The notes under the pieces are model-generated. The model did not search any database and was not told where the DNA came from. It worked only from the letters and a program-made list of their open reading frames with translations. Of a stretch of 64,000 nt of DNA, positions 4,835-32,522 are shown one piece after another. The stretch is from Nanobdellota archaeon (lineage in GTDB: Archaea > EX4484-52 > LFW-46), in the NCBI GenBank assembly GCA_018897155.1, contig JAHILE010000045.1:2236-66235 (forward strand), given 5' to 3'. Position 1 is the first letter of the stretch; each line of letters opens with the position of its first letter. Made by a program: the position numbers and the translations under genes.

Positions 4835-6244
4835 ATGAATTCTTTACGTATGACCAAAATCGTCTGCACAATCGGACCAAAGACAGAATCTTATGAAATG
4901 CTTGAGAAGCTCGCGAAAGCAGGAATGAATGTTGCGCGCCTTAATTTCTCTCACGGCAGTTATGAAGAGCAGGGCGCAAAAATAAAGCGGATAAAAGAGC
5001 TTAATAAAAAAATAATCCATCCAATCGCGATTCTTCTTGACACGCAGGGGCCGGAGATAAGGACCGGCGTTCTGAAGGCAGACCTAAAGCTTCAGATGGG
5101 GGATAAATTCACATTTACTGTTGCAGATAAATTTGACGGAAAATGCGGCACTACAATCACATACAAGCAGATTGTCAAAGATGTGGAAAAAGGCCATATA
5201 ATACTTGTTGATGACGGCATGCTGGAATTTGAGGTTGAAAAAATATCGGGAAACGATGTCATCTGCAAGGTGCTGAATTCAGGAATTCTTTCATCAAGAA
5301 AGGGTGTTAATATTCCGGGAATCAGTATAAACCTTCCGGCGCTTTCCGATAAAGATGTTAATGATATAAACTTCGGAATAAAAAATGAAGTCGATTATAT
5401 TGCCGTATCTTTTGTGCGAAGGCCTGAAGAGATAACCGCCTTGCGCAAGCTTATAAAAGATGAGGGGGCAAGCACACTGATACTCGCGAAAATCGAGCAC
5501 ATGGATGCTGTGAATAATTTCGACAAGATTCTTGAAGTTTCCGATGGCATACTGGTTGCGCGCGGAGATCTTGGCGTGCAGGTGCCGTTTGAGGAAATTC
5601 CGATAATTCAGAGCAGGCTTATAGCAAAATGCAACAAGGCCGGAAAACCGGTGATTACAGCGACGCACATGCTTAACTCGATGACTGATTATCCCAGGCC
5701 GACTAGAGCTGAAGTTTCCGATGTTGCAAACAGCGTGCTGAATGGAACCGATGCAGTGATGCTTTCTGCAGAATCCGCAAAAGGAAAATACCCTGTTGAA
5801 TCTGTTGCTGTAATGGATAAGATTTGCCGGGCGACAGAGAAAACACTTGAGAGCAATATTGAAAAAATGATTTCGGGAAAGACTGTTCCGGAAATTATCG
5901 CGCGAGCAGTTGCCCAGAGCGCGGAAGTTGTCGGGGCAAAGGCAATAATTACGTTTACGATAACCGGAAACACCGCGCAGACAATATCCAAATTCAGGAC
6001 AAAAGTGCCAATATTTGCAATGACTGTTTCGGATAAAATCATTCGCGCGACATCCCTTTCATGGGGAGTCTATTCTTTTCGGATGCGCGAGTATTCGTCA
6101 ACAGACACAATGATAAAGGACGGCCTGTCTATTTTAAAGGAGAAAGGCGCGCTTGCAAAAGGTGATTTGATTGTGATAACGAGCGGCGTGCCGCTTGGAA
6201 AAGCAGGAATGACGAATTTGGCGGAGATTAGGAGAGTGGAATAA
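4835..6244 (+). CDS. pyk: Pyruvate kinase
   Basis: MTKIVCTIGP...ARLNFSHGS... N-terminal signature and full-length 469 aa. Confidence 0.9.
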   Translation: MNSLRMTKIVCTIGPKTESYEMLEKLAKAGMNVARLNFSHGSYEEQGAKIKRIKELNKKIIHPIAILLDTQGPEIRTGVLKADLKLQMGDKFTFTVADKFDGKCGTTITYKQIVKDVEKGHIILVDDGMLEFEVEKISGNDVICKVLNSGILSSRKGVNIPGISINLPALSDKDVNDINFGIKNEVDYIAVSFVRRPEEITALRKLIKDEGASTLILAKIEHMDAVNNFDKILEVSDGILVARGDLGVQVPFEEIPIIQSRLIAKCNKAGKPVITATHMLNSMTDYPRPTRAEVSDVANSVLNGTDAVMLSAESAKGKYPVESVAVMDKICRATEKTLESNIEKMISGKTVPEIIARAVAQSAEVVGAKAIITFTITGNTAQTISKFRTKVPIFAMTVSDKIIRATSLSWGVYSFRMREYSSTDTMIKDGLSILKEKGALAKGDLIVITSGVPLGKAGMTNLAEIRRVE

Positions 6245-8098: not shown

Positions 8099-8494
8099 TC
8101 AAAAATCTCTTGGAACTGCGAAAAAAGAGGATTGTTTGCGATATCTTCGGGGTGTAGGATTTCTGTAATTCGTTCTTATCGTATGGACTAATTGTGGTCT
8201 TGTGTGTGAATCAATATTTTCCCGCGATTCTTTAGTCCATCTATATCCACAATATTTACATTCGTTTGTATTTTTATAAATTTTAATTCTCTCGATTCTA
8301 TGTCTTCCTTCAGTATAGGTGCTATTTTTGTAAGTGCCATCTGAATAGAAGTATCGAGTTTCGATTCGATAGTTCCAAGGTATTCTTTCCATTCGTTCAA
8401 AATCTCTACCGATATGTTTTTTAACAAAAACTCTTTTACATACGGAGCATCTTGTAAAAACGAATATGAATATCATGATAATATCAATTATCAA
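8099..8494 (-). CDS. Hypothetical small protein with N-terminal hydrophobic segment and CxxC...CxxC zinc-ribbon-like pairs
   Basis: 131-aa ORF in an otherwise gene-poor region; CSVC and CKYCGY pairs; weak support. Confidence 0.25.
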   Translation of the reverse strand: MIIDIIMIFIFVFTRCSVCKRVFVKKHIGRDFERMERIPWNYRIETRYFYSDGTYKNSTYTEGRHRIERIKIYKNTNECKYCGYRWTKESRENIDSHTRPQLVHTIRTNYRNPTPRRYRKQSSFFAVPRDF

Positions 8495-8725
8495 GAGTGT
8501 AGAAAAGATGTCCGGATATTCTGGGATTAATACATATGACGTAATTCCAATTAAAATTGATAAAACTAATGGATCTTGATAGAATGGTAATGGTTCGATT
8601 TCACTACCAAATTTTAAACCCTTTTTAATAACACTTGATACGTAATTTAGTTCTTTTGGATAAATCCAAATGCATTTTATATTGTTTAAGCCATAAACCG
8701 ATTTCTTTTCCTCATATCTTTTTCT

Positions 8726-9185: not shown

Positions 9186-9789
9186 ATAGCGCCTCCAAAT
9201 GTTTTTTTGCAGTCTTTTCGGCTTTAAGCGACTTTATGAGTGATTTCAATTCTTCATTATTTAATTTATCTTTGAAAAGTGAAAACAAAAAATAGGCGTC
9301 TTCAATGTCTTTTTCTCCGCTTAAATAAAATTTATATGCAATCTGCATCTCAAGAGGCGACAAAAAAAGCGTTTTATCGCCTATTTCAACGCGTATTTTT
9401 TTGTTTAAAGAATATCGCTCTATTTCATCTTTTACAAATTTGACTTCCATGTTAGGGATGATTTTATTGTTCTCTGCAACGCGAATTGATGATCTATCGT
9501 TCAGTATTTCAAACGCATCCTTTTCGGTTGTTGAATTTATAATCCAATAGCCATTTTTAATAAGCGTTGCGTAAAGTTCTGAAAATCTTTCTTTGGATAT
9601 GGGCTCGATAAGAACATCTATATCCTCTGTTGCGCGGCTTCTTCCGAAAAGTATTGCGACGTAGCCCGAAACAATAACATAATTTATTTGCAATGAATCA
9701 AGGATCTCGATAAAAGAAATTACGAAATTATCCAGTTCGTTTGTTTCTTTATCAAAAATTATATTATTTCCGACCATTTTTGGAAGCAT
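9175..9789 (-). CDS. Nucleotidyltransferase-fold protein (minimal NTase motif GS...DIDVLI)
   Basis: SGYVAILFGRSRATEDIDVLI fits the Pol-beta-type NTase G[SG]x9-13Dx[DE] motif; 204 aa. Confidence 0.55.
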   Translation of the reverse strand: MLPKMVGNNIIFDKETNELDNFVISFIEILDSLQINYVIVSGYVAILFGRSRATEDIDVLIEPISKERFSELYATLIKNGYWIINSTTEKDAFEILNDRSSIRVAENNKIIPNMEVKFVKDEIERYSLNKKIRVEIGDKTLFLSPLEMQIAYKFYLSGEKDIEDAYFLFSLFKDKLNNEELKSLIKSLKAEKTAKKHLEALYAD

Positions 9790-9823
9790 AACTCTATTTG
9801 TCGTCTTTTCTTTAAAAACGCTT

Positions 9824-11101
9824 TCACGGCGTCAGCCTTTCGGTATCCCTCGGCGTCAAGCTCGCTTCGCGCACATTCTCAAGATTCAGAATTTTCATTG
9901 TCAGTCGCTCGATTCCTATTGCCAGGCCCCCGTGCGGAGGCATGCCGTATTTGAAAAAGCGCAAGTGGTCAAAGCTCGCAGGGTTGATTCCTTTCTCTTT
10001 TATATTCGCGACGCGCTCGTCATACCTGTGCTCACGTATCCCACCGCTTGTGATTTCAAGGCCGTTGTAAAGCAAATCAAACGACAGCGTGCCTTCTTTT
10101 CCCTTGCGCATTATATAGAACGGCTTTTTTGCAAACGGGAATTCTGTGACAAAAACAAAGGATGTGCCGTGCTCCTTTTGCGCCCACTCAGAGAGCTTTC
10201 GCTCGCCTTCCGGAGTAAGGTCAGTTTTTTCGGTTTCGACTTTCATCTTAGCGAGGATTTCATTTGCTTCTGCAAGCGTCACGCGCGGTATTTTCTTTGG
10301 CACATCAAGCGTTATTTTGTACATGTCAAGAATATGCTTGCATCTTTTGTTCAATTCCGTGAAAATGAACTGCATCATCTTCTCTTCCATCGCAAGCACA
10401 TCTTCAAGTTCCTGCGCGACCATCTCCAAGTCAAACGAGGCATACTCGCACAAATGCCTTGGCGTGTGGTGCGGCTCTGCGCGATACACAAAACCGATGT
10501 CATAAACCCTATCTACGCCTGACGCAAGAACGCTTTCTTTTATCAACTGCGGGCTTTGCGCAAGGAATGCCTCCTTGTTGAAATAAAGAATCGGGAAATA
10601 TTCTGTTCCGCCTTCTGTTGCCGCGCCTGTCAATCTTGATGAGAAAATCCGCATGAATGACTCTTTTTGCATAAATTCTTCCATCAAGTGAGTTATTTCG
10701 CTTTCAAGCCTGAAGACTGCCATGATTTCCGGTCTGCGCATGTCGATAAATCTCCAGTCCAACCTTCTGTCGAAATTCGATTCGATTTTCCCGACATCAA
10801 TCGGAAGAGGGATTTCGGAATTCGCAATAACTTCAAGAGAATCCGGAACCATCTCAAATCCGTTTGGCGCGCGGTCATTTTTAACAGCGTTTCCAGAAAC
10901 AGTAATCAATGTCTCTTTGTGTATCTCTTTGAACTGCGTAAAAAGAGGATTGTCAGCCTTTACAGTAATCTGCACAATGCCTTCGCGGTCGCGCAAAGTG
11001 ATGAATATGAGTTTGCCCATGTTTCTGATGTCCTGCGCCCAGCCTGTTACGCGCGCGGATTTTCCTGCCTCAATCTGGTTTGAGTAATGCGTTCTTAACA
11101 T
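9824..11101 (-). CDS. aspS: Aspartyl-tRNA synthetase, archaeal type (class IIb)
   Basis: N-terminal OB anticodon-binding domain; class II motifs FRAEPHHTPRHLCEY, GMPPHGGLAIGIERL; 425 aa. Confidence 0.9.
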   Translation of the reverse strand: MLRTHYSNQIEAGKSARVTGWAQDIRNMGKLIFITLRDREGIVQITVKADNPLFTQFKEIHKETLITVSGNAVKNDRAPNGFEMVPDSLEVIANSEIPLPIDVGKIESNFDRRLDWRFIDMRRPEIMAVFRLESEITHLMEEFMQKESFMRIFSSRLTGAATEGGTEYFPILYFNKEAFLAQSPQLIKESVLASGVDRVYDIGFVYRAEPHHTPRHLCEYASFDLEMVAQELEDVLAMEEKMMQFIFTELNKRCKHILDMYKITLDVPKKIPRVTLAEANEILAKMKVETEKTDLTPEGERKLSEWAQKEHGTSFVFVTEFPFAKKPFYIMRKGKEGTLSFDLLYNGLEITSGGIREHRYDERVANIKEKGINPASFDHLRFFKYGMPPHGGLAIGIERLTMKILNLENVREASLTPRDTERLTP

Positions 11102-18418: not shown

Positions 18419-19423
18419 ATGAAAAAGAAATTAAGAATAATGTCTTTATTTGCCGGTTGCGGCGGCATGGATTTGGGATTCCTTATGGCTGAACACCCCG
18501 AACTGGCTTATGAGCTTGTTTGGGCTAATGATTTTGATAAAACCGCCTGCGAAACATACAAAAAGAATTTTAAGCACGACATAATATGCGGCGACATTTG
18601 GGATGTTGACTTAGAGAAGACACCAAGTGTGGATGTAATTGTTGGCGGTTTTCCATGCCAAGATTTTTCAATTCTTAGAGGGGAAAAAAGGCAGGGCTTC
18701 GACTCTAAAAGAGGGCTGTTATACACCAGATTTGTAGAAGCAGTTGCCAAAAAACTGCCGTTATTTTTTGTGGCTGAAAATGTTAAGGGGCTGCTTACAG
18801 CTCACGATGGATGGGCTATAAAAAAGATAAAAGAAGATTTTGAAAAAGTTGATCATGTCGGCTACAAAGTCTGCCATAAACTGATAAACTTTGCAGATTA
18901 CGGCGTGCCGCAAAATAGAGAAAGAGTAATAATCGTGGGAATAAGAAGCGACATAAAGGCAAGTTTTGTATTTCCCGAGCCGACGCATAAAGACAAGCAT
19001 GTTCCTGCAAAAATTGCATTGTTAGGAGTGGAAACTGTGAAACTTAATAATGAAAAGATAAATATTCAGCCTTCGACAAGAAAAAAACTTGAGTTAATTC
19101 CAGCAGGCGGCAATTATCGCAGTTTGCCCGGTTATGAAAATAGAAATTGGATGAGTTTAATATATAAGCGGCTTCATCCAAATCAGCCATCCCCAACTAT
19201 CGTGGCAAACGGAGGAGGAGGAACATGGGGATATCACTATTCAGAGCCAAGACCTTTAACAAACAGGGAGCGGGCAAGAATACAAACATTTCCCGACGAT
19301 TTTGAATTTGCGGGCAATATTTCCGAAGTTAGAAAGCAGCTGGGCAATGCGGTTCCGCCGCAGGGAATAAAGCCTATTGCTGAACAGCTTCTTAGAGCTA
19401 TAAATGGTGTTAAAACGGCTTAA
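18419..19423 (+). CDS. dcm: DNA (cytosine-5)-methyltransferase
   Basis: Motif I FAGCGG, motif IV GGFPCQDFS, motif VI ENV, motif X QLGNAVPP; 334 aa. Confidence 0.9.
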   Translation: MKKKLRIMSLFAGCGGMDLGFLMAEHPELAYELVWANDFDKTACETYKKNFKHDIICGDIWDVDLEKTPSVDVIVGGFPCQDFSILRGEKRQGFDSKRGLLYTRFVEAVAKKLPLFFVAENVKGLLTAHDGWAIKKIKEDFEKVDHVGYKVCHKLINFADYGVPQNRERVIIVGIRSDIKASFVFPEPTHKDKHVPAKIALLGVETVKLNNEKINIQPSTRKKLELIPAGGNYRSLPGYENRNWMSLIYKRLHPNQPSPTIVANGGGGTWGYHYSEPRPLTNRERARIQTFPDDFEFAGNISEVRKQLGNAVPPQGIKPIAEQLLRAINGVKTA

Positions 19424-19429
19424 TCGCAA

Positions 19430-20269
19430 GTGATGCTTTATATTCTTTTCTACTCAATAGTGTTTATGCCGAATTTGGATTTGAATAACGCTTCAGAGTA
19501 CATTGGTATAAAAAGGGCTCTTCTTGAGCGTATAATAAAAGACGGGCGCGAATTGGAGCGCGTTAAAGAAGGCAGAAAATATGTTTTAAAAAGTGAAGAT
19601 ATTGATGTTTGGAAGCAGAGAAAACAGCAGAGACTTGTTGGCTTGGATAAAAACGATTTTATCAAGGCGTTTAAGTTTGCGATAGAAATTAATTATGCAG
19701 GTCATACAAGAGCGGATTTTGGCACGGCGAGGCAAAGAAGTGTAACTCAAGCTGTTGAAAATTGGACCCAAGGCGCCCTTGCAGAAATAGCACTTGCAAA
19801 GTTTATCAAACAAAAATTCAATGTGGATATTGAGCTTGAGTACCGAATATTTGAAGATTCTATTGTCGGTCAGGACATAGTGTCGGTTAAACGGCGGGGC
19901 GTCGCAAATCCTCCAAGAAAACGCATAAGCGTCAAAAGCGGAAAAGAAAATGGAATGATGCTGATTGTTCCAGTCAATGAAGTCGAAAGAGACGAGAGGG
20001 TTTCGGATTCTTATGTTTTCGTAAGGGTGTTTTACCCAACTGATTTTATCTTGAGGCTCTTAAGAGACCTTCCAGACATTTCGGATAAAAAAGATAAAAT
20101 TCCTGAATTTTCTGGCTCTAAAGCGGAAATTGTCGGATATTGTCCGAAAGGTGAACTTGAGAAGAGGGCAGTTCCAGAAGCAGGCATAGAGGAAGAGCGG
20201 TACGTTAAGCCAAGCGGAAAAATGCATAACAGCGACGTCGATTGGCAAAGATTTGCCAACGAACTATAA
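19430..20269 (+). CDS. Hypothetical protein between dcm and vsr. It has an N-terminal excisionase/MerR-like HTH and is a candidate cognate restriction endonuclease or other module partner
   Basis: GIKRALLERIIKDGRELERVKEGRKYVLKSEDIDVWK resembles HTH_17. The remaining ~220 aa are unrecognised. Co-directional with dcm (6-nt gap) and convergent with vsr (overlapping 3' ends). Confidence 0.5.
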   Translation: MMLYILFYSIVFMPNLDLNNASEYIGIKRALLERIIKDGRELERVKEGRKYVLKSEDIDVWKQRKQQRLVGLDKNDFIKAFKFAIEINYAGHTRADFGTARQRSVTQAVENWTQGALAEIALAKFIKQKFNVDIELEYRIFEDSIVGQDIVSVKRRGVANPPRKRISVKSGKENGMMLIVPVNEVERDERVSDSYVFVRVFYPTDFILRLLRDLPDISDKKDKIPEFSGSKAEIVGYCPKGELEKRAVPEAGIEEERYVKPSGKMHNSDVDWQRFANEL

Positions 20270-20683
20270 CTTTTTAACCAGCCTTGAGATGCATGACTTT
20301 GCATCTTTCTTGATTTCATGTTCCCATATTTTCACTACTTTGAAGCCTTGTTCTTTAAGGATTTTTTCGTTTTCTCTATCTCTTTTTACAGTTCTTTCAA
20401 TTTTTGGCAACCAGTAGTCTTTATGACTTTTTGGCTCATTATAGCATTTTGGACATTTGTGCCAAAAGCAACCGTGCAGAAAAACCGCAGTATTCGTTTC
20501 GTATATTAGACTGTCTGGACTCCCTCTTATTTTTGGATGCATCTTATGTTTTATTTTTTTGGCTTTCAAATAATTATGCATCTTTTTTTCTTGAGACGTC
20601 CATTTACTTCGTATTCTTGACATTGTTCTGCTTCTTTGCTCTTTTGTAAGTGTATCTGTCATATATACGCTATAGATATTCAA
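20264..20683 (-). CDS. vsr: Very-short-patch-repair endonuclease
   Basis: TKEQRSRTMSRIRSK N-terminal motif and FLHGCFWHKC catalytic block; 139 aa. Confidence 0.9.
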   Translation of the reverse strand: MNIYSVYMTDTLTKEQRSRTMSRIRSKWTSQEKKMHNYLKAKKIKHKMHPKIRGSPDSLIYETNTAVFLHGCFWHKCPKCYNEPKSHKDYWLPKIERTVKRDRENEKILKEQGFKVVKIWEHEIKKDAKSCISRLVKKL

Positions 20684-29634: not shown

Positions 29635-29961
29635 TTAATCCTTCAGCCTTAACACAAAATTCTTATCGGCCTCTACAAGTTCAGTTATCGGAACAAGCCG
29701 CCAGCCGGCATTGTCGCGCTTGATACAATAGACGCATTCGCCTCCGAATTCTTCTGCGACTTTCTCAAGATGCCGGACTTCTGCTTTGTTAAGATAAATA
29801 ATATCTGATGCAGTTGATTTGCACTCGATTATCAGGATTTTGCCATTTCTTGCACAGACTAAATCAGGCTTTTTGCTTCCGCCCGAACGGATTACTGTCC
29901 AGCCGTCGGATTCAAGATGCAGTTTCAACGCGCGCTCAAATGCATAGCCTTTTTTGTACAT
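29635..29961 (-). CDS. hjc: Holliday junction resolvase Hjc (archaeal PD-(D/E)xK)
   Basis: MYKKGYAFERALKLHLESDGWTVIRSGGSKKPDLVCARNGKILIIECKST... matches the Hjc signature (KG.aFEReL...L...G..v.RsagS...DlvA..g....iEcK). Confidence 0.8.
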   Translation of the reverse strand: MYKKGYAFERALKLHLESDGWTVIRSGGSKKPDLVCARNGKILIIECKSTASDIIYLNKAEVRHLEKVAEEFGGECVYCIKRDNAGWRLVPITELVEADKNFVLRLKD

Positions 29962-29991
29962 GTGAATCCTCTTGAAGAAATTCTGCCGCGT

Positions 29992-30816
29992 TTATAATGG
30001 ATTTGCCTGCAGCGACCATTTTCCTTTAAGCTGTTTTATGTCATATCCTCTTTCCTTCAAGAAAGGCGCGATTTCAGTTGTTGTCGGAAACTCAGAATTG
30101 AATTCTCTTTTTAAATCGGAAATAAGGGGCTTTCCCAAAGAAGATTCATACTTTTGCGAGAGGCATAGCGCATACCATTCTTTCAAATTGGAAAATGTTA
30201 TTATTCCTTGAATCCTGCTGCTAAAAGGCAGTTGCTTCATAACTGTGTTTACTGTTTTTGCTTCAGCGTCAAGGCAAACCAATATTATTTTGTCCGCGCT
30301 TATTGTGTCAGAAACGTCTTCCGCCAATTCCTCGCTCAAAGAAACATGCTTTACTTGAACAGCAGGCCCGAAATTAGACCACATATCTAAGCCTCTGTCG
30401 GCCGCGTTGGTGACGCCCGCTCGAAATAGCTTTGCAGGCATGCTTATTCTCTTTTTATTTTTCGAAAGCCCGAGCGTCAATTTAATGAAATCCTTAAAAT
30501 CGCTTAAAATCTCTTCATTAGAATCTTTTATTGATATGCTGACTTCCGCATTTAATGCGCGCACAATCGCGCTGAACAGCGCGTAAACGGTTATTTCATA
30601 CGCTTTGTCCACGCTTCTCTTTAAGCCGGGATTTTGCGCAAATAATGATAGGAACTCATCAAGCCCGAAAGTTTTCGGCGTTGCGGAATCAATATATCTA
30701 TATGCGCCGAGCACCATCGATAGCCTTTCCTGAAGCCTGTGGTATATGTAGTTTTCGACAAGCCCTCCGTTTTTTTTGTTGAATTCCGCCAGTTCCCTGA
30801 GAAATTCCGGCGGCAT
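29992..30816 (-). CDS. Hypothetical protein downstream of dcm-2 (candidate restriction endonuclease); reading frame stays open 82 codons upstream of its ATG
   Basis: 274 aa from ATG 30816. The same frame has no stop codon from 30817 up to a TGA at 31065..31063, which overlaps the dcm-2 stop, and no ATG/GTG/TTG in that extension. Possible D..QVK-type motif (ADRGLDMWSNFGPAVQVKH). Confidence 0.45.
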   Translation of the reverse strand: MPPEFLRELAEFNKKNGGLVENYIYHRLQERLSMVLGAYRYIDSATPKTFGLDEFLSLFAQNPGLKRSVDKAYEITVYALFSAIVRALNAEVSISIKDSNEEILSDFKDFIKLTLGLSKNKKRISMPAKLFRAGVTNAADRGLDMWSNFGPAVQVKHVSLSEELAEDVSDTISADKIILVCLDAEAKTVNTVMKQLPFSSRIQGIITFSNLKEWYALCLSQKYESSLGKPLISDLKREFNSEFPTTTEIAPFLKERGYDIKQLKGKWSLQANPL

Positions 30817-31051
30817 TGCGTTAGGCTCGAAAAGATTGTCTTGGAATTTTTGAGATGATGTGGAAACTCTTCCGATAAGCCTTCTGCTGACCTCATCTCT
30901 CCATTTTTTGCTGATATTTTTATAGGATTCAAAATCAGAAGGATTTGCGCTATTTTCGCTCCTATAATGGTGCAGAATTTCCGCAATCTGTATGGGCTTG
31001 TATAAATGAACTCTGCTCTTTCTTATAATTTTATCCAGCGCAATTTTGCTT

Positions 31052-32047
31052 TTAATAAGACATCACCATTTGCAATGAAGTTTGTTTGCAGCCATTTTTA
31101 GTCGCGATTATGGCCGGAAGCGGCTCGGATCGCATTGCCGCAATCATTCTTTTTGCCACTTCTCGAATCATATTCACAGGAACGCTGTTTCCGGCAAGCT
31201 TCTTTATCTGCGCGTCCGGAACAGCCATTTTGAAGCTTTTTGGAAATCCTTGCAGCAAAAGCTGCTCTCTTGGGGTGAGGCGCCGTATTCCATCCACCAG
31301 CAAATAATTATGCGATGCTCCAGATCTCAGGGCGCACGAATATTCATGAACTCCTATATGGCCTTCTTTGTTTTCGTGCCAGATAGACGGCTTCGGGACT
31401 TTCTTTTCTCCGATTTTAGCCAATCTTTTTTTAACAATATCCTCGGAAGCAAAATACTTTTTATCCACCATATCGTGCGATTCTATAATTTCGATTAGGC
31501 GCGCTTCCCTTTTTAATGGCTCAGGAAACGTAAATGGATAGTTTTTCTTAAATCCGACAATAATAACCCGCTCTCTTTTTTGAGGCAGCCCATAATCCAG
31601 CGCATTTAATACTTTCCAATGAGTCTGATACCCCAATTGTTCGAGCTTAAACAGTATTGCTTTGAACGTTCTTCCTTTGTCATGGCTTGCGAGCCGTTTA
31701 ACGTTTTCCAGCAAAAATGCTTCCGGCTCCTTTTCTTTCAATATTCTCTCAATTTCGAAAAATAATGTTCCTCGAGTATCCGCAAATCCTAACCCCTTGC
31801 CAATTATGCTAAATGGCTGGCATGGAAAGCCCGCAAGCAGCAGGTCATGATCCGGAATTTCGCTTGAAGGTATTTTGGTGATGTCTCCTTTTGGCATTTC
31901 CCCAAAGTTCGCTTCATACATTTTTTGAGCCGCAGAATCAAATTCAGAAGAAAATACGCACAAACCTCCCAATTCTTCAAAAGGAATCCTAATGCCGCCG
32001 ATTCCCGCAAAAAGATCTATGAATTTAAACGCTCGCTCCATATTCAT
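31052..32047 (-). CDS. dcm: DNA (cytosine-5)-methyltransferase, second copy
   Basis: FAGIGG, GFPCQPFS, ENV, LAGNSVPV motifs; 331 aa. Confidence 0.9.
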   Translation of the reverse strand: MNMERAFKFIDLFAGIGGIRIPFEELGGLCVFSSEFDSAAQKMYEANFGEMPKGDITKIPSSEIPDHDLLLAGFPCQPFSIIGKGLGFADTRGTLFFEIERILKEKEPEAFLLENVKRLASHDKGRTFKAILFKLEQLGYQTHWKVLNALDYGLPQKRERVIIVGFKKNYPFTFPEPLKREARLIEIIESHDMVDKKYFASEDIVKKRLAKIGEKKVPKPSIWHENKEGHIGVHEYSCALRSGASHNYLLVDGIRRLTPREQLLLQGFPKSFKMAVPDAQIKKLAGNSVPVNMIREVAKRMIAAMRSEPLPAIIATKNGCKQTSLQMVMSY

Positions 32048-32105
32048 TCAATATGTGTTTTCGCGCTTATTAACCTTGCCATATCCATTAATTTAATGGC
32101 TTGAT

Positions 32106-32522
32106 ATGGCGGACACAGTCACTAAAAAAGAAAGAAGCAGAATCATGGCTAAAATAAAAAGCAAGAACACCCGAGTTGAAATGACCTTTAGAAAACAGCT
32201 GCGCACAAATGAAATACGTTATCGCTTAAACTATGCGCTGGAAGGGAAGCCGGATATTGTGATTCCTTCAAAGAAACTCGCAATATTTATTGACGGCTGT
32301 TTTTGGCACGGATGCGCAAAGCATTTCAGGATGCCAAAATCCAATAAAGCATATTGGCGCTCAAAGATAGAAAGAAATATGGCGCGGGACAAAGCCGTGA
32401 AAAAAACTCTGAAATCAAAAGGGTGGAAAGTGATGCGTATTTGGGAGCATGAAATTAAAAACAGTTCTGAAAGAGCCGCGAAAAGGGTAAAACGCGTTTT
32501 AAACCCGTTTAAAAGTATATAA
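32106..32522 (+). CDS. vsr: Very-short-patch-repair endonuclease, second copy
   Basis: TKKERSRIMAKIKSKNT and FIDGCFWHGC motifs; divergent from dcm-2. Confidence 0.9.
   Translation: MADTVTKKERSRIMAKIKSKNTRVEMTFRKQLRTNEIRYRLNYALEGKPDIVIPSKKLAIFIDGCFWHGCAKHFRMPKSNKAYWRSKIERNMARDKAVKKTLKSKGWKVMRIWEHEIKNSSERAAKRVKRVLNPFKSI

Follow-up and report, generated by a model that had tools for sequence, protein, structure and literature searches.

A reading frame with no canonical start

Where does a restriction gene begin when its reading frame stays open for 82 codons upstream of the first ATG and offers no ATG, GTG or TTG along the way? The question is raised by a locus in a 64,000-nucleotide stretch of a Nanobdellota archaeon genome (contig JAHILE010000045.1; this whole stretch is called the window below), in which a gene for a C5-cytosine DNA methyltransferase (M, dcm-2) is followed on the same strand by a frame that yields a predicted protein of 274 amino acids (aa). 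A first-pass annotation had reported that this open reading frame (ORF) continues for 82 further codons (31062-30817) without ATG, GTG or TTG, and both the ORF list and the raw sequence bear this out: the frame runs without a stop from 31062 to 29992, and its first canonical start stands at 30816, 82 codons in. We found that a complete HaeII-family restriction endonuclease is encoded here and that the extension supplies its N-terminal quarter. We consider it probable that the gene for this enzyme (R) has no ATG, GTG or TTG start and begins at an ATT at 31056-31054, with the HaeII-type enzyme complete. The protein family is known, as is the setting, an ordinary Type II restriction-modification (RM) module with a vsr gene; what is unusual is the start. 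The argument turns on the following features.

32047-31052, minus strand: C5-cytosine DNA methyltransferase gene (M, dcm-2), 331 aa as the longest ORF; PF00145 at E 6.8e-92 over profile positions 1-323 of 324, TIGR00675 at 326 bits
29992..31056, minus strand: HaeII-family restriction endonuclease gene (R), full length, 354 codons plus stop; PF09554
31062..31067, minus strand: GGTGAT, resembling a Shine-Dalgarno (SD) motif, within the last M codons and 5 nucleotides (nt) upstream of the ATT
31063..31065, minus strand: in-frame TGA closing the R frame, two codons upstream of the ATT and within the M codons GTG-ATG
31054..31056, minus strand: ATT, proposed AUU start of R, aligned with Met-1 of 353-aa homologues
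30817..31062, minus strand: 82-codon start-less extension, comprising the enzyme's N-terminal 80 residues and the two codons upstream of the ATT
30985..30987, minus strand: second ATT, the GenBank start of a 331-aa product (P0001) that begins MAEILHH; homologues reach 23 residues further
30814..30816, minus strand: first canonical start, ATG (Met83), which begins the 274-aa ORF (30816-29992) given by mechanical ORF finders

Translated from just after the TGA, the R frame matched PF09554 (RE_HaeII; curated cutoff 25 bits) at 424.3 bits (E 5.1e-127), with profile positions 2-338 of 338 falling on residues 6-340 of the extended translation. The 82-codon stretch is open because it is coding, since RE_HaeII covers it from profile position 2. 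The family assignment likewise supports the earlier supposition that the 274-aa ORF is the restriction partner of dcm-2. A protein search of 5.8 billion sequences returned 3268 relatives at E <=1e-10; the closest full-length homologues are 349-359 aa long and align over 99% of the query at 62-72% identity. Their N termini read MKSK(I/D/S/E)ALDKIIRKSRVHLYKPIQIAEIL and that of the window reads IKSKIALDKIIRKSRVHLYKPIQIAEIL, which puts ATT 31056-31054 at the position of Met-1; the window's IKSKIALDKII is colinear with MKSK(x)ALDKII of the homologues. This alignment favors the non-canonical start that the first-pass annotation had listed among its explanations. Its proposed check, whether homologues start at the Met at 30816, gave a clear answer: they start 82 residues earlier. 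In a 60-sequence alignment (A1), all 56 of the family-invariant columns include the R sequence of the window.

An open stretch of this kind would seldom arise by chance. With the window's own trinucleotide frequencies, a stop-free run of 82 codons has a probability of about 0.024, and the absence of a canonical start from such a run has one of about 0.013. The window has 61 stop-to-stop frames that reach 150 codons or more, and their median start-less extension is 8 codons; at least two further frames with a long extension (5294-6058 and 9683-10522) shadow longer genes on the opposite strand, as judged by comparison of coordinates. Helices are predicted within the extension in an AlphaFold model of R, where the confidence score pLDDT (predicted local distance difference test) is about 83-93 for residues 1-40; the mean of the model is 81.

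Two further observations concern other parts of R and of the window. The R segment GVTNAADRGLDMW...QVKH (residues 213-251), nearly invariant and the most conserved sequence of the family, has a pLDDT below 50 in the same model; it is probably the catalytic region. A 131-aa ORF within 8099-8725 on the minus strand starts at a TTG (8494); upstream of it the frame stays open for 77 start-less codons, and a faint match to DUF7296 falls in the downstream part only. This frame could be a mis-started gene or a plain open non-coding stretch.

The ATT junction in the window and its relatives

The junction of M and R in the window reads ...caaatGGTGATgtcttATTAAaagcaaa..., and in it the ATT ends on the T that opens the M stop TAA, giving ATTAA and a gene overlap of 5 nt. 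Only TGT and CTT stand between the in-frame TGA and the ATT, and because the TGA sits two codons upstream, the ATT is the sole near-cognate start able to give the conserved N terminus. The first-pass annotation was right that a TGA closes the frame upstream, but not that it overlaps the dcm-2 stop; the TGA, at 31065-31063, lies 9 nt upstream of the TAA at 31054-31052. The GGTGAT that ends 5 nt before the ATT is complementary to AUCACC of the 16S rRNA 3' end, and GGAGGUGAU followed by four bases and AUG is described as a strong natural archaeal SD arrangement in a study of Pyrococcus initiation (PMC6237735). Several genes of the window carry (G)GTGAT 3-5 nt ahead of ATG. GGTGAT occurs 23 times in the window, mostly within genes, and only three of these precede an ATG at 3-7 nt. 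Because such in-window statistics are weak alone, the SD argument rests on conservation across genomes.

To read that conservation, about 165 relative loci were collected (80 from one genome per species, 80 metagenomic, and the rest through exact-protein look-ups), and the codon at the Met-1 position of each was read by tblastn extrapolation. In most relatives this codon is ATG, and in the more distant clades an ATG stands a few codons upstream. At least seven other sequences, archaeal or metagenomic, nevertheless conserve the ATT and the GGTGAT as nucleotides, the pattern GGTG(A/G)T-N5-ATTAA being kept in seven that are distinct from the window and from one another. Their junctions are as follows (MAG, metagenome-assembled genome).

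L005 (= L007), archaeon MAG GCA_043801165.1: GGTGATgtccaATTAA
L006 (= L166), Thermoplasmatota archaeon MAG: GGTGATgtgtgATTAA
L009, Woesearchaeota MAG: GGTGATttccaATTAA
L086 and L087, two contigs of Ga0209541: GGTGATggcgcATTAA
L167 (= L168), GCA_053532035.1: GGTGATtaaagATTAA
L169, Ga0373628: GGTGGTatctgATTAA

Together with the window these make eight ATT-bearing R genes, which share 67-78% protein identity apart from two closer pairs; every one of the eight frames is uninterrupted, at 349-354 codons. The first canonical start shifts among the relatives, falling at codon -1, +17, +41, +59 or +80. In L169 (1816-1830), GGTGGT replaces GGTGAT, the second codon is AAT, and a downstream AGTAA corresponds to the would-be M stop of ATG-type relatives. 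In L006 (2498-2505), the codon directly before the ATT is a GTG, at a distance of only 2 nt from the SD motif.

ATG-bearing relatives with the same gene order overlap through ATGA (L008 and L016) or ATGAAAAGTAA (L002, L088, L013 and L014), and in the latter type M runs two residues longer, ending in EK before its stop. Several ATG-bearing relatives (L096, L013, L016, L095 and L014) also carry a (G)GTGA-type motif 5-7 nt upstream of the start. In a viral contig collection we found only six relatives, all at <=56% identity and none in the ATT group.

Selection at the junction and origin of the ATT

Between distant ATT-bearing pairs, synonymous sites are saturated, with a synonymous divergence (dS) that is >1.5 or undefined. 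Nonsynonymous divergence (dN) is 0.12-0.20 over codons 2-82 vs 0.21-0.28 in the remainder of the R gene, so that the extension is the better-conserved part of R. Two closer pairs, in each of which both members carry ATT, gave a dN/dS of 0.046 (L009-L167; dN 0.047, dS 1.01) and 0.040 (L086-L087; dN 0.013, dS 0.33), and these low values indicate strong purifying selection on R genes while they were ATT-started. The extension codes for protein and is subject to strong purifying selection.

The nucleotides of the junction show constraint of another kind. The last sense codon of M is TAT, GAT, AAT, AAT, CAT, CAT, GAT and GAT in the eight sequences, so the residue varies (Y, D, N or H) and the second and third bases are fixed as A and T. 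The base ahead of GTG falls in the third position of M codons that specify M, T, E, T, Q, E and T, and yet it is fixed as G; the Val codon in the M tail is invariably GTG despite the saturation of synonymous sites. The five bases between GGTGAT and ATT vary by lineage and are shared only in the near-identical contig pair L086/L087. Two RNA signals held at a fixed spacing, presumably an SD motif and a start triplet, would account for this pattern, and constraint on the M protein alone would be insufficient to produce it. Folding of seven ATT junctions with RNAalifold gave a stem of only 2 bp and no covariation; because no conserved structure emerged, a hairpin at the M/R junction like that of Cfr9I is unsupported.

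How the ATT might have arisen can be read from the relatives. A single G-to-T change in ATGAA converts the start to ATT and the M codon GAA to the stop TAA. The AGTAA downstream is kept in L169, and the other ATT members have AGC there. On a neighbor-joining tree the ATT members are paraphyletic around a small ATG subclade (L002, L088 and L008), which suggests that the ATT state is old and that reversion to ATG has occurred, although a tree built from p-distances is not strong for the direction of change.

Alternative explanations

The first-pass annotation had also raised a recent truncation or silencing of the gene, an assembly indel, and a +1 frameshift fusion with dcm-2, and the comparisons above speak against all three. 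The most serious of the alternatives, though still highly unlikely, is that an ATG-to-ATT mutation silenced R and left a young pseudogene beside an orphan methylase and Vsr. Loss of the R gene with M retained is common in RM evolution, the window offers no canonical start over 82 codons, and it shows no depletion of RGCGCY, the HaeII site, all of which would suit a silenced gene. Such a history is hard to square with the same ATT in eight sequences that are about 30% divergent in protein and saturated at synonymous sites, their frames all intact, or with a dN/dS of 0.04-0.05 between ATT-bearing pairs; moreover, none of the 56 family-invariant residues is missing from the window protein, and the ATT and its upstream GGTGAT are themselves conserved as nucleotides. 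We rank next, as about equally unlikely, initiation within the gene, whether at Met83 (ATG 30816, 274 aa), at ATT 30987 (331 aa) or at another near-cognate codon, with the upstream part left untranslated. ORF finders give the 274-aa product and GenBank the 331-aa one, but the region that would go untranslated is the best-conserved part of the protein by the dN comparison given above (0.12-0.20 vs 0.21-0.28), lies within the Pfam profile and is predicted as confident helices. The first canonical start, moreover, sits at differing places among relatives, and no SD-like motif precedes ATT 30987.

We give still less weight to a programmed +1 frameshift at the M stop, in which NAU UAA A would be read as NAU-[U]-AAA to yield an M-R fusion in the manner of prfB or antizyme. 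The R frame is indeed +1 relative to M, a zero-frame stop is present, and 4 nt separate the SD-like GGTGAT from the last sense codon downstream, an arrangement reminiscent of the prfB stimulator. The spacing of the SD in prfB is 3 nt, however, and the 4 nt to the shift codon here differ from it, whereas the 5 nt to the ATT fit initiation. The codon that would occupy the P site varies (UAU, GAU, AAU and CAU, from TAT, GAT, AAT and CAT in the DNA) and AUU matches none of the corresponding anticodons, so that no +1 re-pairing is available. No shift heptamer is conserved, nor are the 5 nt before the ATT, and a frameshift would leave unexplained the fixed A and T of the ATT amid a varying amino acid. 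ATG-bearing homologues make a separate R protein from exactly this residue, and none of the 120 best homologues has the length of a fusion, all being 310-368 aa. An error of sequencing or assembly, with a true ATG or an indel masking the start, has next to no probability. The window does derive from a MAG (GCA_022013375.1), but the identical junction occurs in assemblies made independently (NCBI, JGI and Logan), R and its homologues are colinear from residue 1 so that no indel is needed, and an ATG at this position would cost the methylase its TAA stop.

A possible mechanism for low and coupled expression of the nuclease

If R does begin at the ATT, initiator tRNA would start it at AUU 31056. 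Ribosomes could be placed on the AUU by the GGUGAU acting as SD, or could come to it fresh from termination at the overlapping UAA, in which case the P site would have to shift by one nucleotide only. With AUU as a poor initiator, the nuclease would be kept far below the methylase, and production of R only on mRNA whose M frame is under translation would provide a safety ratio for a toxic enzyme. The efficiency of an ATT start in Escherichia coli is about 0.3% of that of ATG, and 5-nt overlaps, which are possible only with an ATT start (ATTAA, ATTAG or ATTGA), are otherwise suspected to be annotation errors (PMC10666635). Raised levels of IF3 in E. coli inhibit initiation at non-canonical start codons (PMC2268962). 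We infer initiation at AUU and, probably, coupling of R to M; a regulatory benefit, in the form of a low R:M ratio and of M made before R, is a hypothesis. That AUUAA is a selected device, through which R is made almost solely by ribosomes finishing M and at a yield lower by about a hundred-fold, is a proposal that we advance tentatively, as a possibility somewhat short of an even chance.

Several points weigh against initiation at the ATT or against its proposed effect. GGTGAT also encodes Val-Met/Ile in the tail of M, and its conservation could be partly at the level of the protein. In L006, the GTG one codon upstream of the ATT could serve as the start instead. Archaeal aIF1 destabilizes non-AUG complexes (PMC6237735), and because of this and the great weakness of AUU in E. 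coli, the output of R may be extremely low. The case for initiation at AUU is built from conservation. The window shows no avoidance of the HaeII site RGCGCY: 58 occurrences compare with 59.2 +/- 6.5 in shuffled sequences (order-4 Markov ratio 0.89), which gives no independent sign of active restriction.

The module and its neighborhood

The first-pass annotation described the region as the second Dcm-Vsr pair of the window, divergently arranged and with Hjc downstream, and matches to the Pfam and NCBIfam families (PF00145, PF03852 and PF01870) agree with that description. Besides M and R, the locus includes two genes.

32106..32522, plus strand: vsr, very-short-patch mismatch endonuclease gene, 138 aa, divergent from the methylase gene; PF03852 at E 2.8e-23, TIGR00632 at 137 bits against a cutoff of 97.85
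29961-29635, minus strand: hjc, Holliday junction resolvase gene, 108 aa; PF01870 at E 7.2e-20, NF040854 at 79.6 bits

M and R lie in different frames, each with its own stop, as separate adjacent genes of which M is intact (329 aa in the GenBank call vs 331 aa in the longest ORF), in a Type II, IIP-like layout. The region is a Type II RM module in an archaeal genome, in which M and, after it, a complete R share a strand and vsr is divergent. The relatives carry the module in unrelated neighborhoods; in some of them vsr lies upstream and is divergent, in others it is downstream and convergent. This indicates that the module is a mobile cassette. The hjc gene, a core archaeal gene, begins 30 nt past the R stop on the same strand (gap 29962-29991); it is a neighbor that lies outside the RM module and may be co-transcribed with it.

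A first RM-like module is found at 18419-20683. There, a C5 methylase gene (18419-19423, plus strand) is followed after 6 nt by a 279-aa ORF (19430-20269) that has a GTG start and a weak match to HTH_17 only, with no match to a nuclease family, and a convergent Vsr gene (20264-20683, minus strand) overlaps the end of this ORF. With regard to the composition of the window, GCGC is over-represented (423 vs 291 +/- 16 in dinucleotide-preserving shuffles), and GGCGCC alone is low (16 vs 29.5 by an order-4 Markov estimate).

Annotation and significance

The only database entry identical to R is the GenBank product in GCA_022013375.1 (JAKLQK010000015.1), which runs for 331 aa from ATT 30987; judged by the homologues, that start is probably 23 codons too short. 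The R gene of L005 was annotated by NCBI from the junction ATT, as a 353-aa product (P0006), and other ATT-bearing R genes were shortened by gene callers to 334, 310 or 343 aa. Short entries among the R homologues thus arise because gene callers truncate ATT-started genes. Truncated calls (274, 310, 331, 334 and 343 aa) can mimic damaged or orphan systems, and inventories of RM systems in uncultured archaea are biased as a result.

If the proposed reading is true, the locus would represent natural, conserved AUU initiation in Archaea and a real instance of the 5-nt overlap class. It would also provide archaeal Type II RM systems with a promoter-independent control of the "methylase first, little nuclease" kind that operates without a C protein. 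The locus is a test case for start-codon fidelity, in which aIF1 is involved, and for models of termination-reinitiation.

Comparison with known systems

The closest known system is HaeII RM itself, in which a PF09554 endonuclease is paired with a C5 methylase and the prototype site is RGCGCY. As there, R is a full-length member of the family and is directly preceded, on its own strand, by M, and vsr adjoins the pair as it does in many relatives. The window differs in the ATT in place of an ATG start, in the ATTAA overlap with the M stop and in its archaeal host, and HaeII specificity is putative here.

For the start codon, the nearest parallel is E. coli infC, which encodes IF3 and has a conserved AUU start used for autoregulation. 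R would share with it an AUU at the position of the initiator Met, conserved across lineages, and, by analogy, a weak codon as the setter of expression. The two cases differ in the protein, in the domain of life and in the initiation factors (aIF1), and in R the AUU shares a base with the stop of the preceding gene; no feedback loop is known for R, nor does the comparison imply one.

In its gene arrangement the junction resembles the coupled overlapping pairs of the ATGA and TAATG types (Huber et al. 2023, PMC10666635), with an overlap of a few nt on the same strand and an SD motif in the end of the upstream gene, and the ATG-bearing relatives show the classical ATGA overlap. Unlike those pairs, the window and the seven related sequences have ATT in the overlap and no canonical start there, and the 5-nt overlap class that was doubted in that paper is here conserved and under selection.

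A last comparison is with the translational controls described for Type II R genes, namely, the start-site hairpin of Cfr9I, the antisense RNA of Eco29kI, a cluster of rare codons and a possible C-R coupling (PMC12707154). The term "start codon" appears nowhere in that 2025 review of RM systems, and its section on translational control is silent on start-codon choice. We found no literature on AUU/ATT, weak or rare starts in restriction genes, within a coverage that was incomplete and so gives absence of evidence only; the BsaHI paper describes a TTG start, but in the methylase. The presumed aim is the same in the known controls and in the module described here, to keep the nuclease below and behind the methylase without a transcriptional change, but the means would be different, a poor start codon combined with an overlap of stop and start.

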